Shown: piece by piece, positions 17,063 through 25,571 of the stretch
How positions within the stretch are numbered: position 1 is the stretch's first letter
How the letters are laid out: each line of letters starts with the position of its first letter
Sequence record: SRR2962707_1499
Direction: 5' to 3' (one strand)
Length of the DNA: 60,452 bases
Translations under genes and position numbers: made by a program
Notes under the pieces: model-generated
The model's database searches: none
Told to the model about the DNA's origin: nothing
Seen by the model: the letters and a program-made list of their open reading frames with translations, nothing else

Positions 17063-19195
17063 TTAAGCATAGTAATCAACACCCGATGGCGATACATAAG
17101 AAATATTTCGAACGGACAGGTCGTCATCCCCATCGTCGCCAGTTAAAAAGCGACTGGCATTAGCCGTTGACCCGCCTTCTCTAGTATCTTGGTATTGACC
17201 GCCGCTGGTCTCTTGTTGAGACACACCCACATCTACGCTATCCAGATCCATCCCTTGCTGAGCAAGCATGTCCCTCAATCTGCCCATTTGGCTTTCTAAT
17301 AAATCTCTGGCTTGAGGCGTGGCGGCCATAAAACTCACCTGGGTATTGTTATTGTCACTATCCACAGACACCTTCACCGTTAAACTGCCTAACTCAGGCG
17401 GGTCTAGCTTTATGTGTGCTGTATGCCCGCCAGATTGCGCAACAAAGGCCACTTTTTGCCCCATTTCCCCAGCCCAGCCTGGATGATTCGGAGGCACAGA
17501 CATGGCTAAATTTTGCGGAGAGTTCATCGGCTGCATATTGGCTGCGGCTGGCGAAAGTCGGTTAGTTGTATTATTTGTCGCTGTGATTGAGCTATTCAGC
17601 CCTCCGGACTCAGAGTCTCTAGAGGTACCATCCCATTGACTGGCCATTTTACCAATCATCGCATCTTGCTCTTTCTTACGTAACTCTAGCGGCTCATTCG
17701 CCAACAAACTGTCTTTGTCTATTGTTGAAGCCAGATTGCCATCCGCCGTTAAACCATCCGTTTGTCCATTCGCGGCACCACCAACTGCCAAAGCGCCTGC
17801 CGCCAATGGCTGAGCGTTTTTGACCTCGTTGGCTAAAGCCACCTGATCGGCCACTTTAGTGGTTGGTGTGGGAATACCAGACACAGCGCTTTTATCGACA
17901 CTGGCATCAGAGGCCGTCGTCGCAGCCGCAGTCGCCGCGGGAGCACTCCCTCCCATCTGAGAAAGCACCCAAGATAATTCTGTACCATCAGCCGCATCCG
18001 GTGCTTCGCTAGATTCAGCAGGTTCAACTTTACCGTCTTTAGCTAAGAGCATCGGAGCATCCGCTTTATCTAAAGCAGCTTTTGCGCCGTTAGCATTCAC
18101 CCCCTTCGCCGCCAGACCAATGGTCGCTAGACCTGCAGCTACTTCCTTCGCTTTGCCTTCTTTAGCCTGTAATGCTCTCACTTCTGCCGGGACTTTATCG
18201 CTTATTTTTTCAGTCCCTTGTGACTTGATTGGCTGAACACCCGACGCCGCTAACGGTTGACTAGATGATAATGAATTCGTCGCTATATTCCCTGAAGCAC
18301 TAAGCTCAGGGGCGGACTTGGCAGAGCCGGATAGATCGGAAGCAGATCGCTCAGAAGCAGGTTTTGCATCAGAAAGAGACTGTTCAGGTGCAAGCTCTAA
18401 CTCCGAGGCCACACCTGCCTGGTTTGGATTCTGGTTATCCACATCTGAAGAAGTAGTCAGTTTATTTCCACCGACCTTCTCTACCATCCCTTGATCAGGG
18501 TTATTGGCTTGCAAACTATGAGCGGCAGCATCAGACGTTGCCTGCGCGCCCTCAACTTGACCCGCCATATCTGAAGCGTCATTAACGCCAAGCGCCTCCC
18601 CTTTTGAGGTCATGGCAGCGTCTACTGGTGGCGTGGTACTCGGAACCGTCTTGCTTACCCCAGAGTCACTGGTTACAGCCGTCGACGTCTCGTTCTGCAC
18701 ATCATCAGCCCCCTCAGTTACGCTTCGCAAAACACCAGACTCCGTCTTACCGCTTTTTGCCAAAAGCTCGCTGTCTGGCGAATTTTGTCCTGTATGGTGC
18801 AAACTCTTGCCGTTATCTATCACTTTTTCTTGGGTGGCGTTTTTAGCCTGGCTGGTGAGGTCCCCATTGCTTGCCCGCGAATGACCATCTTGTAAAGAAG
18901 ACTCACTGCTGCTGCGATCATTGCTTGAAGAAGACAACCTGGATTCTTTTGCGGCCCCTTCTTGGCTAGGATTTGAGCGAGTCACGTTATCTGCACCCTC
19001 ATCAGTACTCACAACCGCTTCACCCTTACTTTGTGTAGGCTGTGATTTCGCGTCGGAAGCTAACTCCCGCTTCGCTTTTTGAAGGTTTTCTGCAAATACT
19101 TGACCACGAGAATCAGCACCTGACGAATGGGTGTTGATAGTGGATTTTGATGGGGGTTGTGAAGATGACAACACCGAGTTTGTGACTGTTTGCAT
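17063..19195 (-). CDS. fliK: Hook-length control protein FliK
   Basis: Long low-complexity body; C-terminal LDPPELGSL...VDYYA; GGAGG precedes ATG 19195. Confidence 0.93.
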   Translation of the reverse strand: MQTVTNSVLSSSQPPSKSTINTHSSGADSRGQVFAENLQKAKRELASDAKSQPTQSKGEAVVSTDEGADNVTRSNPSQEGAAKESRLSSSSNDRSSSESSLQDGHSRASNGDLTSQAKNATQEKVIDNGKSLHHTGQNSPDSELLAKSGKTESGVLRSVTEGADDVQNETSTAVTSDSGVSKTVPSTTPPVDAAMTSKGEALGVNDASDMAGQVEGAQATSDAAAHSLQANNPDQGMVEKVGGNKLTTSSDVDNQNPNQAGVASELELAPEQSLSDAKPASERSASDLSGSAKSAPELSASGNIATNSLSSSQPLAASGVQPIKSQGTEKISDKVPAEVRALQAKEGKAKEVAAGLATIGLAAKGVNANGAKAALDKADAPMLLAKDGKVEPAESSEAPDAADGTELSWVLSQMGGSAPAATAAATTASDASVDKSAVSGIPTPTTKVADQVALANEVKNAQPLAAGALAVGGAANGQTDGLTADGNLASTIDKDSLLANEPLELRKKEQDAMIGKMASQWDGTSRDSESGGLNSSITATNNTTNRLSPAAANMQPMNSPQNLAMSVPPNHPGWAGEMGQKVAFVAQSGGHTAHIKLDPPELGSLTVKVSVDSDNNNTQVSFMAATPQARDLLESQMGRLRDMLAQQGMDLDSVDVGVSQQETSGGQYQDTREGGSTANASRFLTGDDGDDDLSVRNISYVSPSGVDYYA

Positions 19196-19222
19196 AATTT
19201 CCTCCGGCAATAGAAAGCAACA

Positions 19223-19249: not shown

Positions 19250-20950
19250 TCAGTTTAGCTGCCAACGAAAACACGCACTGACAGAGCGTCCGCCATGAGA
19301 AAACTCCAGTTTTTCACATAACTGATTTAGCAGCGCCAAGCCTCGATTATAAGGCACGTCTGTATTGTCTAAATCAAACGCTACGCTCTGATAGTCAAAA
19401 CCAGGCCCACTGTCTGTGACTCTCAGTTCGAGCTCACCTGACGCAGAGTCAGAGGTCGCCTTTACTTGAATCGTCACTGAACCTTCTTCTAATGCACATA
19501 AAGCCTGCTCCCTCTCTTCATAATATGAAGCAAACCCCTCTAGGGTATTCTTCTTATCAGAAGACAGCCTTAACACACCATGTTCAAGAGCATTAGAATA
19601 CAGCTCAGACAAAATCATAAACACATGACTCGCGTATTGTTTTAACCCTGGCGCCGTGGTGATAATTTGAAGTATATAAGGAAGTGGATCCGTCGAACGC
19701 AAAGAGTCAGCGTTTAACCTGTATTCAAAAGAGAAATCTGCCGGAGCTTCTTGCTTATAAGACGGTTCACTAGCGTCCGCTGAATGCACGCCAATTTGGG
19801 GGGTGAGTGAAACTTCTAAACAAGAAATATCATCATGTGGACTCTCTAAAACACCCGCTTGCGCCATCCGATCAATGAGCCAACTCAAGCCGTTATGTGA
19901 CAAAACTTCACGGTTGTAAAGCGAAGCAACCATGGTTTCATAGAAGGAGGTTCCTTGCGCTGTCTTGGCTTCAAAAAGGCCATCGGAATAAACCAGCAAC
20001 GCATCGCCCGCTTGAAACGATACCGGATCAATAGCAAACTCAAAGTCAGCAGGAGACAGCACGCCTAACGGTAAATTCTTTGATATAAGTCTTTTAGGTT
20101 GTTGCTCAAACTGAGAGAAAAACAATAAATCAGGCAACCCACCATTCCAGATTTCCATGCTTTTGTCGTTGGCTTTAATATCAATAAAAGCCGCACTGCA
20201 AAACATATCTGGTGGCAAAATTCGCTTAAGACGTGCGTTTATTTCAGGCAATATTTGCCTCATCAAAAAGCCTTTTTTCGTCCAATCAAAGAATATATCC
20301 GCCAATGGCAAAGCACCAATAGCAGCAGACAACCCCTGACCTGTAAAGTCACCCAGTAATAAGTGCATCCCTCCATTAGGCTTATAAGCCGCCAATATGA
20401 CATCGCCGTTGAAGGTATGACTACCATAATGAAAAGTATGTAAAGCAGGGTCGCTTAAACAGTTCGAGTGGGTAATATTTTCGTAAACCACTTTCGCCAC
20501 TTCCTGCTCATACACCAACATTTCATTATATTGGGATAAAGCTTGGTTTTGCTTCGCCAGTGTTTTTTGCATGACTAAAATTCGTGTCATTGCGTCCAGT
20601 TTAGCCGCAATTATCGTTGAGCAATAAGGCTTAGAAATGTAGTCTGTGCCGCTTATTTTCAAGCAATCTAATAGCGACACCGAGTCACGATCGCCAGATA
20701 AAAACACAATCGGGACAAACACACCATTCGCAATGCGCTGTATTTCTAGGGCAACCGATCGACTATTGCAAAAAGAGGGCGTGACGCCTAAACAAACCAA
20801 TTGAATAAGCTCAGGATCAAATAAATCAATGGCTTCGCGACCATCATTCGCAACCACCACTGCATGACCAAGTTGCTCGAATATCGTTTTTAAAAGCACA
20901 CGATCTGGGGTCGCTTCATCCGCAATAAGAATGGTAATGTTTGCTTCCAT
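19250..20950 (-). CDS. HsbR-like partner-switch protein: degenerate receiver + PP2C/SpoIIE phosphatase + anti-sigma HATPase
   Basis: GDFTGQG, YSDGL, HDDIS (PP2C); ELYSNALEHG, DSGPGFD, RGL (HATPase); receiver has LVCLG in place of the Asp. Confidence 0.88.
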   Translation of the reverse strand: MEANITILIADEATPDRVLLKTIFEQLGHAVVVANDGREAIDLFDPELIQLVCLGVTPSFCNSRSVALEIQRIANGVFVPIVFLSGDRDSVSLLDCLKISGTDYISKPYCSTIIAAKLDAMTRILVMQKTLAKQNQALSQYNEMLVYEQEVAKVVYENITHSNCLSDPALHTFHYGSHTFNGDVILAAYKPNGGMHLLLGDFTGQGLSAAIGALPLADIFFDWTKKGFLMRQILPEINARLKRILPPDMFCSAAFIDIKANDKSMEIWNGGLPDLLFFSQFEQQPKRLISKNLPLGVLSPADFEFAIDPVSFQAGDALLVYSDGLFEAKTAQGTSFYETMVASLYNREVLSHNGLSWLIDRMAQAGVLESPHDDISCLEVSLTPQIGVHSADASEPSYKQEAPADFSFEYRLNADSLRSTDPLPYILQIITTAPGLKQYASHVFMILSELYSNALEHGVLRLSSDKKNTLEGFASYYEEREQALCALEEGSVTIQVKATSDSASGELELRVTDSGPGFDYQSVAFDLDNTDVPYNRGLALLNQLCEKLEFSHGGRSVSACFRWQLN

Positions 20951-20953
20951 AAA

Positions 20954-21256
20954 TTACTCGGACATCGTAAAAAGGCGGTTGAAATTAGCCATTTCTAACA
21001 CTTGGCTAACAACGGCGGAGCAATGACTGAGAAGCACTTTGGCCCCTCGTACATCGGCGTGTTTTTTAAGCAGCAGTAACATACCCAATGCCGAACTATC
21101 TAAGTAGCTAACATTCGATAAATCAACGGTGTACGTTTTAGCTTGAGGCGTTGACACAAAAGCATTGCGAAACACACGATGGCAATAAACATCAAAACGC
21201 CCATTCACTTTAATCATCAGATGCGCTGAACTTTCATCATAACGGTTTTCTATCAC
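20954..21256 (-). CDS. STAS anti-sigma antagonist (HsbA-like)
   Basis: VDLSNVSYLDSSALGMLL, ANFNRLF; GTG 21256 preceded by GGAGGG. Confidence 0.92.
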   Translation of the reverse strand: MIENRYDESSAHLMIKVNGRFDVYCHRVFRNAFVSTPQAKTYTVDLSNVSYLDSSALGMLLLLKKHADVRGAKVLLSHCSAVVSQVLEMANFNRLFTMSE

Positions 21257-21288
21257 AATCCCCTCCAAACACAAGAAGGAGAGCTTAG

Positions 21289-23202
21289 TTAAGACTCGTC
21301 CAACCCATCTGTATTTTCTATTAAAGCGATTATTTCTTTGTTACCGCTATCATCCAATCGAGTTACCTCGAGTAATAAATTGTCAATTCGGTCTTGTATT
21401 TCATTGACCGATTGTTTGGCACGCTCCAATCGAGCAGCGCCGATACTGTGATCCGACTCTAAAAGAGACAAGGTTAGGGAAACCCCTTCCTGCATGGCAA
21501 AAATCTGCTGCTGCACACTACTAATATCGTGTTCTAAATCAATGGAAAAACGCTGGCGAATTTGCTCAGAGCTGTCTTCTGTCGCCGATAAACTAGCGAG
21601 CACTCCAGCACGAACTTCATTCAAACAGCGGTCAACATCATTCAAGAGTAAGACCTGCCCTGCGACGTCTTTTTCTACCAAAACCAAACGCTGTAGCAGC
21701 AGTTCATAGCCAACTAAAATGGTGTCATCAATCTGATGAGACAAAGAAGAGACATTTCCTAACTCGCTAACAAGCGACTCTGATAAGGCGTTATTAACCG
21801 GCACAATCGACTTAATATGCTCACAATTGTCGTTTATTTTTGCCGTTAATAGCGTTTTTATTTGTTGTAGTTTAGTAATTTTAAAATCGAGTGAAGACTG
21901 CAATTCTGAGTGTTCTGCGGCGTTTATAAGATCAATAACAGAACGTCGTATTTCTTCCAATAGCAGTGAGAAATCTTGAAATGGGGAGTCGCTTCTAAGC
22001 ACGCGTATTGGGTAATGCCAAGTACCTTGAACCATGAGTTCTAAGCTTTTTCTTAACACTTCAATTTCCGCTAACTGTGAAAGAGGTGTCAGCGATACTA
22101 AGAAGGATACATCATCACTTTCCTGATCTATTAATCGCTCTACAACAACGGAGTAGCGCCCTTCTAACAAGCTCAATTTAATATCATGGTCGCCACTTAA
22201 AATGTTATCCGGTAAACGCTCGCCAAGCGGCCCATCTATGCCTGGGTCAATGTCAAACAGAGGCTCGAATACACTTGCGTTCTGCTCCCACAAATCACTA
22301 AACCCTTTGCTCAGCCACTTAACATCTCCCTTCTCATCTGCAATCAGAAAAGCGCTGGTTAAATGAGACATACCTAATGTCATTAATTTTTGATCCAAAA
22401 TAGACTCTGATAATTCGAGCTCGCGCGCGGACAATTCATTCTCAAACAGTCGGCCCAAATCCGTGAATTCATCAATGACGTTATAATTCTGATCCGATGC
22501 AAAGCTTCCTTGTTTATGCTTTTCAAGCACCACGTGCAAATGCTGAAAGCCTTTTCCTAATCGTTTCACCAAAGTGGTCGACAAAATAACAAGCAGTAAA
22601 GCAATACCACCAAAAACAACCAACAATCCCCACTCACCGTAATCAAACAAGGTCTTATTACGCGCGTTCAGTGCTAATTGCTGTTCAGCGAACTCCCTTC
22701 CTTGTTCCCCTGCTCGAGCGATAAAACGACGAATTTTCTCTTTTTCTTGAACAAATAAACGTCGACTCTTCGCCACTCGCGACGCCTGATGCTGCTCCGT
22801 AATTTTTTTAAGGAAAGACAACTCTGGCTTCACATCCAGAAAACGAGCATTGGCATTAACCTGCTGATAGCGGGATAACAGAAGGTCGATATGGGTATAA
22901 ACTTCGAGCAATTTCATTGGCAGCAGTTCGCTCTCTTTAACCTCTGAAAAAGAAACGTTAACCCCTGCTCTTTGGTCACTCAAAAGCCACTCAAACCAAT
23001 AACGCTCCGCGGTGTTTGTGTGGATCATTAATGTGGCCAAACCAGCCTGCTTCTCCGCTCGCTCACCGAACTCCAAATCAACAAACTTATACAGCCCGAC
23101 AGCGCCCACGACGAGCGCCAGCAAGAGGGCAAAAACCCCTTTCTGCACAGAACCAATCAACTCTTTTCGAGGCAAATTCAAAGAAGCATCTTGCTTAGTC
23201 AT
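21289..23202 (-). CDS. Membrane protein, probable highly degenerate chemoreceptor (2 TM, HAMP-, PAS-like, coiled coil)
   Basis: 637-aa open frame; hydrophobic segments at about aa 22-40 and 191-213; DEFTDLGRLFE (HAMP-like); AFLIADEKGDVKWLS (PAS-like); no canonical signalling tip. Confidence 0.55.
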   Translation of the reverse strand: MTKQDASLNLPRKELIGSVQKGVFALLLALVVGAVGLYKFVDLEFGERAEKQAGLATLMIHTNTAERYWFEWLLSDQRAGVNVSFSEVKESELLPMKLLEVYTHIDLLLSRYQQVNANARFLDVKPELSFLKKITEQHQASRVAKSRRLFVQEKEKIRRFIARAGEQGREFAEQQLALNARNKTLFDYGEWGLLVVFGGIALLLVILSTTLVKRLGKGFQHLHVVLEKHKQGSFASDQNYNVIDEFTDLGRLFENELSARELELSESILDQKLMTLGMSHLTSAFLIADEKGDVKWLSKGFSDLWEQNASVFEPLFDIDPGIDGPLGERLPDNILSGDHDIKLSLLEGRYSVVVERLIDQESDDVSFLVSLTPLSQLAEIEVLRKSLELMVQGTWHYPIRVLRSDSPFQDFSLLLEEIRRSVIDLINAAEHSELQSSLDFKITKLQQIKTLLTAKINDNCEHIKSIVPVNNALSESLVSELGNVSSLSHQIDDTILVGYELLLQRLVLVEKDVAGQVLLLNDVDRCLNEVRAGVLASLSATEDSSEQIRQRFSIDLEHDISSVQQQIFAMQEGVSLTLSLLESDHSIGAARLERAKQSVNEIQDRIDNLLLEVTRLDDSGNKEIIALIENTDGLDES

Positions 23203-25069
23203 AGTTACTCACACTTTCTAAAGAGTGTTGCGGCCAAAGGTAATGAATAAAATCCGATATCGTATTGGTATTTATCACAAAATTATTCTCGTATGCAGCA
23301 TTACATCCAAGTACGCACAAACCATCGCTGTCTGATAGCACGCTCAAATGACTCACATCCGCCATTGCCACCTCATCTGGTAGCCGAGCACACCAAGTAA
23401 AGAATGGCGCCTGAAAAGCCAAAGAACAGCCGTCGAGCAAAAGCACCATACGATTAACGACTTCGTTCTGACATAATACGATACGGTTAAAATATTCCAT
23501 ACCGTAAAGTAGCGCACTTTCACGCTTACCCTCTCCTGTCGAGAATGAGCCAAGAAGCGAATGAGAAGCAGCCGAGACAATATCCAGCACTAGGTTAGCC
23601 TCAATCCACAAGAGGCCGCCTTTTAGCGCAACTTGGTAATAGCCAGTTTTCTGTGCTGAGCGCTCGCCACCGGGCACCTCTTTAACCCCAGGTAAAAGGC
23701 ATTCAGCCAACCAGGGCTCAATGAAGCGTCTGGATTTTGCCGTTAGCCAAATGTTTTTTATCCGCTTTCCAGCTTGATAAGAAACAGCACAAACACCTTC
23801 TTCTTGATGCAAACTCTTGATAGCAACAGCCACATAACGACCATCTTGATTGATCACAAAGAGCTCAAGACTTGTGTCATTCAAACACTGAAAAACACCA
23901 TCTTCAATCAAAAAAAGGTCCGCATTAACGTGCAAACTCGCCCCAATCCCAGTCTCAAAGTAGCACTTCCAACCAGAATCGGTTCGCTGGAAACGCGTAT
24001 TTTGAAGTGCAAAACAGCCGACAAAGTCGGCCTGATCAAATGCCCAGCACTGCTCACCAACATCAACCACATAGAGCCAAGAAGAGAGCAGATCACGCCC
24101 TAAACAGACCTTGTTACTAGCAAGATCAACTTTCGATTCAGCCACACTGGTAGCATCACTATCGGAGTCGATTTGCAAATAATGATAGCCTGCAATTCGA
24201 ACAGGACGAGCCAACTGCCCAGCAGTCACAGCAATCGGTAGCATAGACAAAGAGCGAGGCACTAAACGCTCGCCATTCACCAGCTTGCCGCCACGCTCTA
24301 TCGATGAGAAATAGTCAGAAAATTCAACATAATAATGTGTTCTTATCGATTCAGAAATCGACGCTAGCAAAGCACGACGCTGGCGCTGAGGAAGCGCCTC
24401 AGATAAAAAAGTCGCACCATAGCTGGATAGCAAAAACGCAGCCTTTGGCTCGTTCTCGTCCGTTGCCGAGTAACGCCAAGTAAAGTTAGCAAAGCGCGCG
24501 CTTAGCCAATCCAAAGGCTGTACAGTACACAGATGAAAATACCCCGTTCCCACACTATCCAAGTCTTCATCAAGATGAAAAGACACCTTGCCAATAGCGG
24601 ACAAACAAGCCATTGCGCCTGTGATATCCAGTGGACTTGAAACACTTGGACGCCCCTCATACAAATAGCAAGGAAGCGTACGAACCAAGGATTTTTTTTG
24701 TTCCAATAAGCGCCAACAAAAACGCTCTTCAGTAAACAAAGAAAGCGTTAATCCTACATAAGCCTCTCCAAGAGCCCAAGCCAAAGTGTATTGCTCAAGG
24801 CTGTCCGCCATTTCATATAACGCCATGGCTAACTTACTATCGTATATAGGTTGCTTGCTAATAACATTGTCGACACTGAGCAGGCCAAGTCGTGTCCGTT
24901 CACAGACAATATCAGGGGCATGATTGGCGACTAAACAGTGAGATAAATCTGATAACGCACACTTGATATTGATCAAGCCAGACTTAGGGGAAGGTGGGTA
25001 GGCATCAATTGCCTCAGCCAACGCGGAGATAACAGAAGAGTAAGTGCTAACAACAATATCCTTTGGCAC
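23195..25069 (-). CDS. Probable highly degenerate CheA-CheW fusion (pseudokinase)
   Basis: 624-aa open frame with GAGG RBS; by-eye similarity to P1, P2, P5 and CheW segments; no His or ATP-box motifs. Confidence 0.5.
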   Translation of the reverse strand: MPKDIVVSTYSSVISALAEAIDAYPPSPKSGLINIKCALSDLSHCLVANHAPDIVCERTRLGLLSVDNVISKQPIYDSKLAMALYEMADSLEQYTLAWALGEAYVGLTLSLFTEERFCWRLLEQKKSLVRTLPCYLYEGRPSVSSPLDITGAMACLSAIGKVSFHLDEDLDSVGTGYFHLCTVQPLDWLSARFANFTWRYSATDENEPKAAFLLSSYGATFLSEALPQRQRRALLASISESIRTHYYVEFSDYFSSIERGGKLVNGERLVPRSLSMLPIAVTAGQLARPVRIAGYHYLQIDSDSDATSVAESKVDLASNKVCLGRDLLSSWLYVVDVGEQCWAFDQADFVGCFALQNTRFQRTDSGWKCYFETGIGASLHVNADLFLIEDGVFQCLNDTSLELFVINQDGRYVAVAIKSLHQEEGVCAVSYQAGKRIKNIWLTAKSRRFIEPWLAECLLPGVKEVPGGERSAQKTGYYQVALKGGLLWIEANLVLDIVSAASHSLLGSFSTGEGKRESALLYGMEYFNRIVLCQNEVVNRMVLLLDGCSLAFQAPFFTWCARLPDEVAMADVSHLSVLSDSDGLCVLGCNAAYENNFVINTNTISDFIHYLWPQHSLESVSNYD

Positions 25070-25130: not shown

Positions 25131-25571
25131 CTAACGTATATTATCCATAAAACGACGCATGGCAAATTCATCGTTCTGGCGCTGTTCTTTCTTATCTTCT
25201 AACTGCAGCTCTTGTTTATGATGTTTTTCTTTTAGCCAATCCATGCTTTTTGTTTTGGTTTTCGCTTCCATCCAGCCACGCATGGTCATATTCGCTTGCT
25301 GTTGAGAACGCCCTACCGCAGCTTCCTGTTGTTTGATGGCTTGTTGAACACGATCCACAAAGTGTTGATAGTTCGTGGTGAGATAAGCACTGAGGCCCAA
25401 TAAATTACGCTCGGATTCATATTGCCCCGCGTATTCTTTCAACTCTTCCAGTTTATCCTGATCATGCTGTACCTTGGCTTTATCGGCCGCCAACTGCCGA
25501 GCAATAGCGTCTTCTTTGCGTTTAGCGATATCGACTAATAATTGAGCTCGTTGGGATTTTTTCATAACCAT
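25131..25571 (-). CDS. fliJ: Flagellar export chaperone FliJ
   Basis: Helical, NYQHFV..., EQRQNDE; follows fliI. Confidence 0.92.
   Translation of the reverse strand: MVMKKSQRAQLLVDIAKRKEDAIARQLAADKAKVQHDQDKLEELKEYAGQYESERNLLGLSAYLTTNYQHFVDRVQQAIKQQEAAVGRSQQQANMTMRGWMEAKTKTKSMDWLKEKHHKQELQLEDKKEQRQNDEFAMRRFMDNIR

Follow-up and report, generated by a model that had tools for sequence, protein, structure and literature searches.

What are two large genes that domain scans fail to recognize doing in the middle of a flagellar operon, immediately ahead of a partner switch? The question is raised by the interval between fliJ and fliK in a 60,452-nucleotide (nt) stretch of DNA from record SRR2962707_1499, called here the window, whose nearest genome is that of a Marinomonas (G001). 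The interval holds four open reading frames (ORFs) on the minus strand: ORF1, ORF2, a STAS anti-anti-sigma factor and a regulator with receiver (REC), PP2C phosphatase and HATPase domains, the last two genes forming a partner switch in which the STAS protein has its phospho-Ser. An earlier, sequence-only reading had described four packed frames with an 8-nt overlap and no stops; the recomputed coordinates agree, with distances from fliJ through ORF1, ORF2, STAS and the regulator to fliK of, in order, 61, -8, 32, 3 and 39 nt. ORF1 and ORF2 are annotated as hypothetical (a copy of ORF1 with 95% identity is labelled Marinomonas arenicola hypothetical protein); neither had a match in Pfam or NCBIfam, nor did the ORF1 profile in a sequence search of the PDB. 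Our results support well the view, which we hold to be very probable, that the insert is what erosion left of a stage-1 F7 chemosensory cluster seated between fliJ and fliK in the ancestor.

The gene order of related families points to this origin. A profile of the regulator matched 125 of 301 genomes of the order, and 40 outgroup loci from 21 families were examined. In 17 of these, from nine families, cheY-cheA-cheW-(aer2)-cheR-cheD-cheB stand ahead of the STAS-regulator pair (aer2 in 16 of the 17), and 12 of the 17 show fliJ/fliI and fliK on both sides. Locus L115 is ordered STAS-Y-A-W-Aer2-R-D-B-McpA-STAS-RR-hpt (single letters for che genes; RR, response regulator), which apart from its single cheW is the stage-1 F7 order of Ortega 2020 (PMC7184735; this and the other cited works are drawn on in part). 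The Marinomonas interval is syntenic with the intact clusters and keeps their succession of CheA, receptor and STAS-phosphatase; it lacks the cheY, cheW, cheR, cheD and cheB of a functional stage-1 F7 cluster. CheAs of this slot are 52-56% identical to the CheA of E. coli, an F7 protein, and 41-47% identical to the window's flagellar CheA; the CheA tree was obtained by a quick tree search. When the ORF1 profile was run against outgroup ORFs, 11 of the 12 proteins at E<=1 were slot CheAs. Two results weigh against descent: whole-protein hhalign comparisons of ORF1 and ORF2 with slot proteins are weak (P 0.01-0.05), and the regulator tree, which has long branches, leaves the nesting of the Marinomonas clade among slot regulators unsettled. 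The Marinomonas ancestor would have lost cheY, cheW, cheR, cheD, cheB, mcpA and hptB; cheA and aer2 would have survived, though altered. The sequence-only reading had spoken of a four-gene insert with a repurposed chemosensory system that feeds the switch. This is not a new insertion, since the neighbourhood is the ancestral F7 gene order, and the wiring is suggested by co-retention only.

Erosion of this slot has taken varied courses in other families, down to STAS-RR-hpt. The slot of P. putida is in this last state, between fliJ and fliK (10.1101/2021.08.29.457346), and the attribution of hsbA-hsbR-hptB to this place in Pseudomonas is right for that species. The locus reveals the Pseudomonas slot as the tail of an F7 cluster. 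Among L123, L141, L143 and L149, independent erosions of the slot have left nothing but cheY and cheD with an unassigned ORF, a single McpA-like gene, or cheR alone. Some Marinomonas have a second, stage-2 F7 cluster elsewhere (L153-L161), mostly intact and ordered mcpA-STAS-RR-Y-A-W-Aer2-R-D-B, so that in these genomes the degenerate F7 has an intact counterpart. CheD occurs in 25 of 64 genomes and was not found in G001.

ORF1 is built like a CheA. Its AlphaFold2 (AF2) model, from a 51-sequence alignment, has a pLDDT of 83.8, and all eight Foldseek matches below E 0.001 are CheA chains (best E 7e-7). Comparison by VIA aligned it with CheA P1 (Z 14.4, root-mean-square deviation (rmsd) 3.6, 125 residues, the best match being P1 of R. 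sphaeroides CheA3), with P3-P5 (Z 11.6, rmsd 9.5, 228 residues) and with CheW (Z 10.6, rmsd 3.2, 120 residues). The folds follow the CheA order P1-P2-P3-P4-P5, with P4 as a remnant and P2 weakly supported by a Foldseek match to the P1-CheY/P2 structure 2lp4 (E 0.023); in CheA, P2 is the receiver-binding domain. The phospho-His of P1 maps to residue 40 or 41, each of which is His in one of 51 orthologs; this register comes from hhalign (P=1.6e-4) and an inferred helix pattern. The His box H[ST][ILV]KG, found in 25 of 26 CheAs, is in none of the 51 orthologs, and helix B has no conserved His. The absence of the P1 His, noted earlier for the window copy, thus extends to the genus. The N, G1 and G2 boxes are each present in 26/26 CheAs and 0/51 orthologs, and P3 and P5 are about 80 residues apart, against about 190 in the intact slot CheA (Pfam bounds, L115), which leaves about 110 residues missing. 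ORF1 is predicted from these losses to be dead at both ends of the kinase reaction throughout the genus.

The C-terminal part of ORF1 has two CheW-fold domains, both scoring higher on CheA P5 than on free CheW; the second averages 9.5 bits on the slot P5 profile and -0.4 on that of slot CheW. A fused cheW gene was rejected as the source of this second domain because CheA P5 scores better, and duplication of P5 seems likelier. The two domains align weakly to each other (P 0.016). A CheA-lineage protein without a catalytic module might also be one half of a split CheA that is completed in trans, like CheA3 and CheA4 of R. sphaeroides. Split CheAs are known (10.1101/2022.05.07.491035), and CheA3 P1 is the best VIA match of ORF1, but a half retains either the His or the ATP site, whereas ORF1 has neither, and the only other CheA of the nearest genome is the complete flagellar one. 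We regard this explanation as hardly credible. ESM Atlas returned CheW/Hpt matches for ORF1 and HAMP_2/MCP matches for ORF2, all below 0.9 and to be taken as leads only. Its Hpt-P2-CheW protein clusters from Thermodesulfobacteriota, with no HATPase listed, are other truncated CheA lineages.

ORF2 was modelled by AF2 with a pLDDT of 80.6 and a pTM of 0.37, in the order transmembrane (TM) segment, helical periplasmic bundle, TM segment, HAMP, PAS, HAMP-like unit, disordered linker and hairpin; two TM segments occur in all 61 copies. Foldseek gave WalK/VicK, the PAS-HAMP of Aer2, McpB and the Tsr core unit. Because WalK/VicK are among them, the N-terminal two thirds alone cannot separate a receptor from a sensor kinase, and it is the tip motif, the enrichment of a C-terminal pentapeptide and the L115 slot receptor, with its identical domain order, that point to ORF2 being an Aer2-like receptor. 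The hairpin turn reads AAxxGE...RxFAV in the majority of the family, like the Tar/MCP tip; the tip sequence has a three-residue insertion and, upstream of the turn, departs from the canonical tip. PAS and HAMP precede the cytoplasmic hairpin, as in Aer2-like receptors. The pentapeptide x-[HFYW]-x2-[HFYW] ends 17 of 17 slot receptors and 11 of 61 ORF2s, the window copy not among them, against 9 of 316 other neighbouring proteins, and the WDEF ending of the L115 receptor recurs in four of these 11. ORF2 does not belong to the 36H class: Pfam MCPsignal matches none of the 61 copies and the hairpin is too short, a length from which we infer that the methylation helices were lost alongside cheR, cheB and cheD. 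An alternative hhalign register, with the hairpin as a refolded return arm, was discounted, since the predicted turn falls on the GE...RxFAV motif; hhalign of the cut hairpin domain was not significant either way. Past the turn, the residues D555/H558/D559 (21529-21531 region) form a near-invariant D-x-x-H-D, with His in 59 of 61 copies, which is the most conserved surface of ORF2. The description of ORF1 and ORF2 as chemosensory relics therefore stands: the Foldseek check proposed for it found CheA for the one and Aer2/McpB/Tsr for the other.

Features of the fliJ–fliK interval of the window and its flanks (positions in the window)
Feature	Positions	Strand	Basis or remark
fliJ, upstream flank	25131..25571	-	Pfam FliJ, E 2e-24
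ORF1, pseudo-CheA of 624 amino acids (aa), P1-P2-P3-(P4 remnant)-P5-P5	23195..25069	-	AF2 model, Foldseek, VIA
ORF1 P1 (Hpt fold) without phospho-His, Ser40/Asp41 in its place	24692..25048	-	ortholog alignment, hhalign register
ORF1 P2-like alpha/beta domain	24470..24667	-	secondary structure and position; partly inferred
ORF1 P4 remnant, ~80 aa	24095..24331	-	N, G1 and G2 boxes gone
ORF1 two CheW-fold domains, aa 328-458 and 477-611	23237..24088	-	AF2 model, VIA, profile scores
ORF2, shortened Aer2-like receptor, 637 aa	21289..23202	-	AF2, Foldseek; overlaps ORF1 by 8 nt
ORF2 signalling hairpin, ~143 aa, ~20 heptads	21349..21780	-	AF2 model; best-conserved stretch of the protein
STAS anti-anti-sigma factor, HsbA/CrsA type	20954..21256	-	Pfam STAS_2, E 1.5e-13
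REC-PP2C-HATPase regulator, HsbR/CrsR type, 566 aa	19250..20950	-	Pfam Response_reg, SpoIIE, HATPase_c_2
Kinase/anti-sigma (HATPase) domain of the regulator	19262..19750	-	invariant N, G1 and G2 residues
fliK, downstream flank	17063..19210	-	Pfam Flg_hook

Are the relics maintained, or are they on their way out? FliJ had a match in 63 of 64 Marinomonas genomes, and 60 of these 63 loci were surveyed, leaving out G001 (near-identical), G084 (contig end) and G078. The exception, G028, has neither a FliJ nor an ORF1 match, and its chemosensory cluster L162 is arranged differently. ORF2 is full length and unbroken in all 60 loci. Of the ORF1 copies, 50 are whole, one is split and one truncated, making 52 loci with the gene; it is a pseudogene in one further locus and deleted in seven, whose genomes had no copy elsewhere by ORF1 profile search. 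STAS is present in 48 loci and missing in 12, PP2C is deleted or decayed in eight, and the HATPase part is coded in 58, once on another contig. STAS and phosphatase are thus the dispensable parts, and ORF2 and the kinase/anti-sigma domain the persistent ones. The absence of an Hpt gene, noted earlier for the window, is general: by tblastn hptB is gone from the slot in 60/60 loci (hpt is present in 39/40 outgroup loci), as are all remnants of cheW, cheR, cheD and mcpA, and the inspected matches of cheY and cheB queries fell on the regulator's own receiver. There is no room for hptB downstream of the regulator, because the gap to fliK is only 21-103 nt in 55 of 57 loci. Among 30 Hpt loci of five genomes, none scored above 71 bits on the HptB profile, whose own members reach 112-148.

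The pair appears, on present sequence sampling, to be confined to Marinomonas. In an order-wide sample, full-length ORF2 occurs in 13/13 Marinomonas genomes and 0/388 others, where the matches are weak and limited to the N-terminal TM-HAMP-PAS part; at E<=1e-10 it matches 25 of 1.84 billion representatives, and of seven looked up the four named are Marinomonas. A homolog search with the ORF1 alignment gave one protein among the 8000 candidates scored, which is no measure of rarity.

We estimated the ratio of nonsynonymous to synonymous rates (dN/dS) by the Nei-Gojobori method, summed over 14 non-overlapping pairs picked by ORF2 dS 0.05-1.2. It is 0.246 for ORF1 (13 pairs, maximum 0.38), 0.105 for ORF2 (14 pairs) and 0.036 for the hairpin, against 0.10 for STAS, 0.051 for the regulator and 0.030 for fliJ; within ORF1 it is 0.21 in P1, 0.22 in P2 and 0.38 in the P4 remnant. 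These values, which show purifying selection on both genes, are far from the ratio near 1 that the sequence-only reading had named as telling against it. Frequent disruption, its other counter-sign, is partly seen in ORF1 (10/60 loci) and not in ORF2. They also bear on the idea that both genes lack any signalling role and decay slowly, held by weak constraints such as avoidance of misfolded membrane protein or read-through into fliK. ORF1 falls to 10-28% identity within the genus, with a dN/dS of 0.25, seven deletions and three recent breaks, and in other families the slot has been eroded piece by piece. Slow decay nevertheless seems improbable given the ratio of the hairpin, the unbroken ORF2, which should be deletable too since clean deletions of its neighbours are tolerated, and the full five-domain fold of ORF1 kept across the genus. 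Recent damage was seen in several loci: an insertion splits the regulator in L027, fliK is interrupted and ORF1 truncated in L032, STAS is a remnant in L041, and ORF1 is a pseudogene in L046 and split in L049.

The switch itself is less stable than its motifs suggest. The output motifs reported for the window are all present (STAS D53-S54; PP2C D183/D201/D323/D373-374; HATPase E449/N453/D513/G515/G517/G537); the STAS D and S are invariant in 49 alignment rows and the HATPase N, G1 and G2 residues in 57/57. The STAS protein has 100 residues from a GTG with a GGAGG site, or 106 from an upstream TTG. The description of this output half as intact nevertheless fails, given the losses of STAS and PP2C in the genus and the faster divergence of STAS and REC in the window's lineage. 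Receiver position 55 of the window is Gly (GGC, 20788-20786), not a phosphorylatable Asp; in 57 aligned regulators, two broken or cut copies excluded, it is Asp in 44, Gly in 4, Asn in 2, Lys in 1 and unaligned in 6, and the losses of Asp lie on separate branches. The PP2C GHG motif is GQG in the window (Q205, 20336-20338), as in only 4 of 51 PP2C-bearing orthologs, all receiver-dead: the window and its sister L022 have Gly55 and H205Q in common, and H205Q recurs convergently in the unrelated receiver-dead pair L057/L060. The two closest relatives of window and L022 have lost ORF1, STAS and the receiver. Identity to L042 is 56% for the window's receiver and 72% for that of the sister clade, 47% and 63% for STAS, and an unchanged 68% for the HATPase. 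Because receiver and STAS diverge faster, the HATPase does not, and the closest relatives have lost parts, we conclude that this lineage is relaxing towards an HATPase-only state, with the output half as its labile part. The statement that every phosphotransfer element is lost thus fits this lineage (no hpt, no P1 His, Gly55) and not the genus. Intact receivers could be served in trans by proteins such as those of G001, one standalone Hpt and several hybrid kinases.

How might relics and switch be connected? Our preferred mechanism, to which we give a probability of roughly 0.45, is a receptor and a non-catalytic adaptor that act on the regulator by binding, with RpoS as output. ORF2 would be a membrane-anchored receptor dimer with a short hairpin devoid of methylation helices, and ORF1 an adaptor that binds this hairpin through its two P5-like domains. 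With its retained P1/P2 face ORF1 would dock the receiver of the regulator (HsbR/CrsR type), and this contact would set the regulator's location or bias it. Other Hpt proteins or hybrid kinases could still phosphorylate the receiver in trans in most species, though not in the window's lineage. As output, the kinase/anti-sigma domain would most likely hold RpoS, and STAS and phosphatase would form an optional loop for its release. Each of these contacts, any sensing and the RpoS output in Marinomonas are what we infer; the folds, catalytic losses, selection, synteny and gene losses are observed.

Co-retention makes the link between relics and switch plausible. A receiver or pseudo-receiver is kept in 52/52 loci with ORF1 and deleted, in three events, in four of the eight without it, and P1/P2 of ORF1 remain constrained though the cluster has no cheY. 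Five genomes of two lineages (L062; L076, L078, L079, L081) keep ORF1, ORF2 and a pseudo-receiver-HATPase after losing STAS and PP2C; in the last four the pseudo-receiver lacks the acidic pair and the Lys, and three retain the Asp. Such genomes allow a stronger, rather unlikely version of the binding mechanism, in which receptor and doubly dead CheA are a phosphorylation-free unit controlling an anti-sigma factor by direct receiver binding, reduced in these five to a chain of receptor, pseudo-CheA and pseudo-receiver-anti-sigma without His, ATP site, canonical receiver, phosphatase or cognate STAS. If true, a chemosensory machine would have been converted into an allosteric sigma-factor switch.

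Several observations weigh against the preferred mechanism. The receiver is canonical in 44/57 regulators, with a dN/dS of 0.03, so phosphorylation still plays a part in most of the species. Ten loci have no ORF1 or a broken one, and its co-loss with STAS (P 0.004 unweighted) is no longer significant when weighted by branch length (P 0.07). ORF2 stands alone in L033 and L080, and the hairpin is equally conserved without ORF1 (70-73% identity to L042 in L033, L052 and L053), so that the main partner of ORF2 may be something else. It is possible, if less probable, that ORF2, with ORF1 as an optional adaptor, has the same F7 origin and was co-opted for a job unrelated to the switch, for example as a polar landmark or a guest of F6 arrays like McpA, and that its position beside STAS and regulator is inherited gene order alone. 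The presence of ORF2 in every locus, a hairpin constraint that equals FliJ's and is independent of ORF1, STAS and regulator, translational coupling to fliJ in ten loci, where the fliJ stop overlaps the ORF1 start, and the membership of McpA-like receptors in F6 arrays (PMC7184735, PMC9855816) all fit co-option. The ORF2 tip, with its insertion and its divergence upstream of the turn, and the receiver fold, never deleted where ORF1 is kept, speak against it.

As to the output, RpoS appears likelier than FlgM/FliA by analogy with better-known regulators. In P. aeruginosa and S. oneidensis the regulator (HsbR or CrsR) binds RpoS through its third, kinase domain, and the STAS protein binds the HATPase or FlgM; the partner of FlgM in P. 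aeruginosa is HsbA (Bouillet 2019, PMC6482189). The Shewanella CrsA-CrsR pair sits in an F7 locus (PMC9855816). That the HATPase persists where STAS is lost agrees with an anti-sigma role, an argument weakened by a second STAS elsewhere that could be its substrate. This paralogue was found in 5/5 genomes tested (G001:C4:1047891-1048178, with matches in G008, G030, G033 and G064) and in at least two adjoins a frame of about 385 aa matching the REC-PP2C part of the regulator. The control of FlgM/FliA put forward in the sequence-only reading, in which the relics feed the switch and the STAS protein acts on FlgM, is demonstrated for P. aeruginosa and agrees with the fli-operon position, the invariant STAS Ser and the presence of flgM in 5/5 genomes tested. 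We consider it unlikely in Marinomonas: STAS is lost in 12/60 genomes, all flagellated, of which six retain ORF1 and all ORF2, and in P. putida deletions of hsbA, hsbR or hptB, in the same slot, left FliA output and swimming unaffected (10.1101/2024.11.25.625174). The idea that the regulator disappears together with rpoS or flgM was rejected, both genes being kept (rpoS in 63/64 genomes). RNA-library contigs of one study span the ortholog locus L077; two of the runs assemble nearly the whole genome, so transcription there cannot be inferred. Across the genus the fliK frame varies from about 510 to 850 aa (715 here), against about 400-570 in outgroups; hook length may vary with it.

Marinomonas has kept a non-catalytic CheA and its receptor, under selection genus-wide, next to a known stress-response switch; this hints that the signal passes by binding and not by phosphate transfer. 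A maintained CheA with neither His nor ATP site would be a bacterial pseudokinase scaffold in chemosensory signalling. Truncated CheAs described so far miss one or the other (10.1101/2022.05.07.491035); full-text searches, outside whose scope lay subscription papers and bioRxiv supplements, found no CheA without both and no description of these Marinomonas proteins, and the Marinomonas matches in the Ortega supplement (PMC7184735) are all in one file, the row shown being an McpA tree entry. What stage-1/2 F7 systems do has yet to be settled (Ortega 2020, PMC7184735). The genus, made of culturable marine bacteria, is a natural deletion series in which ORF1, STAS, PP2C and receiver are lost in varied combinations, so that both the F7-to-RpoS link and roles of chemosensory parts that need no kinase can be tested directly.

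The closest known system is the stage-1 F7 cluster of the V. cholerae cluster III type (Ortega 2020, PMC7184735), with which the Marinomonas slot shares the order CheA, Aer2-like receptor, STAS, serine phosphatase regulator, the PAS-containing receptor, remnants of the pentapeptide, and the chromosomal place of the intact clusters of nine related families. It differs by the absence of cheY, cheW, cheR, cheD, cheB and mcpA, by a CheA without His and ATP site and with two P5-like domains, and by a receptor hairpin of about 20 heptads instead of 36. As in HsbA-HsbR-HptB of Pseudomonas, STAS and REC-PP2C-HATPase lie directly before fliK and after fliJ (P. putida); in Marinomonas, however, hptB is missing, two relic genes stand upstream, STAS and PP2C are often lost, and the window's lineage has a dead receiver. 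CrsA-CrsR of S. oneidensis likewise links a three-domain regulator and STAS to an F7 system, Che1, with RpoS control proposed (PMC9855816, PMC6482189), but Che1 is catalytically complete, whereas the Marinomonas chemosensory half is non-catalytic. Split CheAs (R. sphaeroides CheA3/CheA4; CheA.IX, XI, XII) are also CheA-lineage proteins missing a catalytic module (10.1101/2022.05.07.491035); they miss Hpt or HATPase and complement each other, whereas ORF1 has neither activity. McpA/CttP and ParP are other chemosensory parts in non-canonical, structural or guest roles, but the signalling domain of McpA is still recognised by Pfam, and ParP has the CheW fold and is no full CheA body paired with a receptor of its own. 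Both the parts and the way they are linked belong to known systems; what is new is the conserved non-catalytic CheA-receptor pair.

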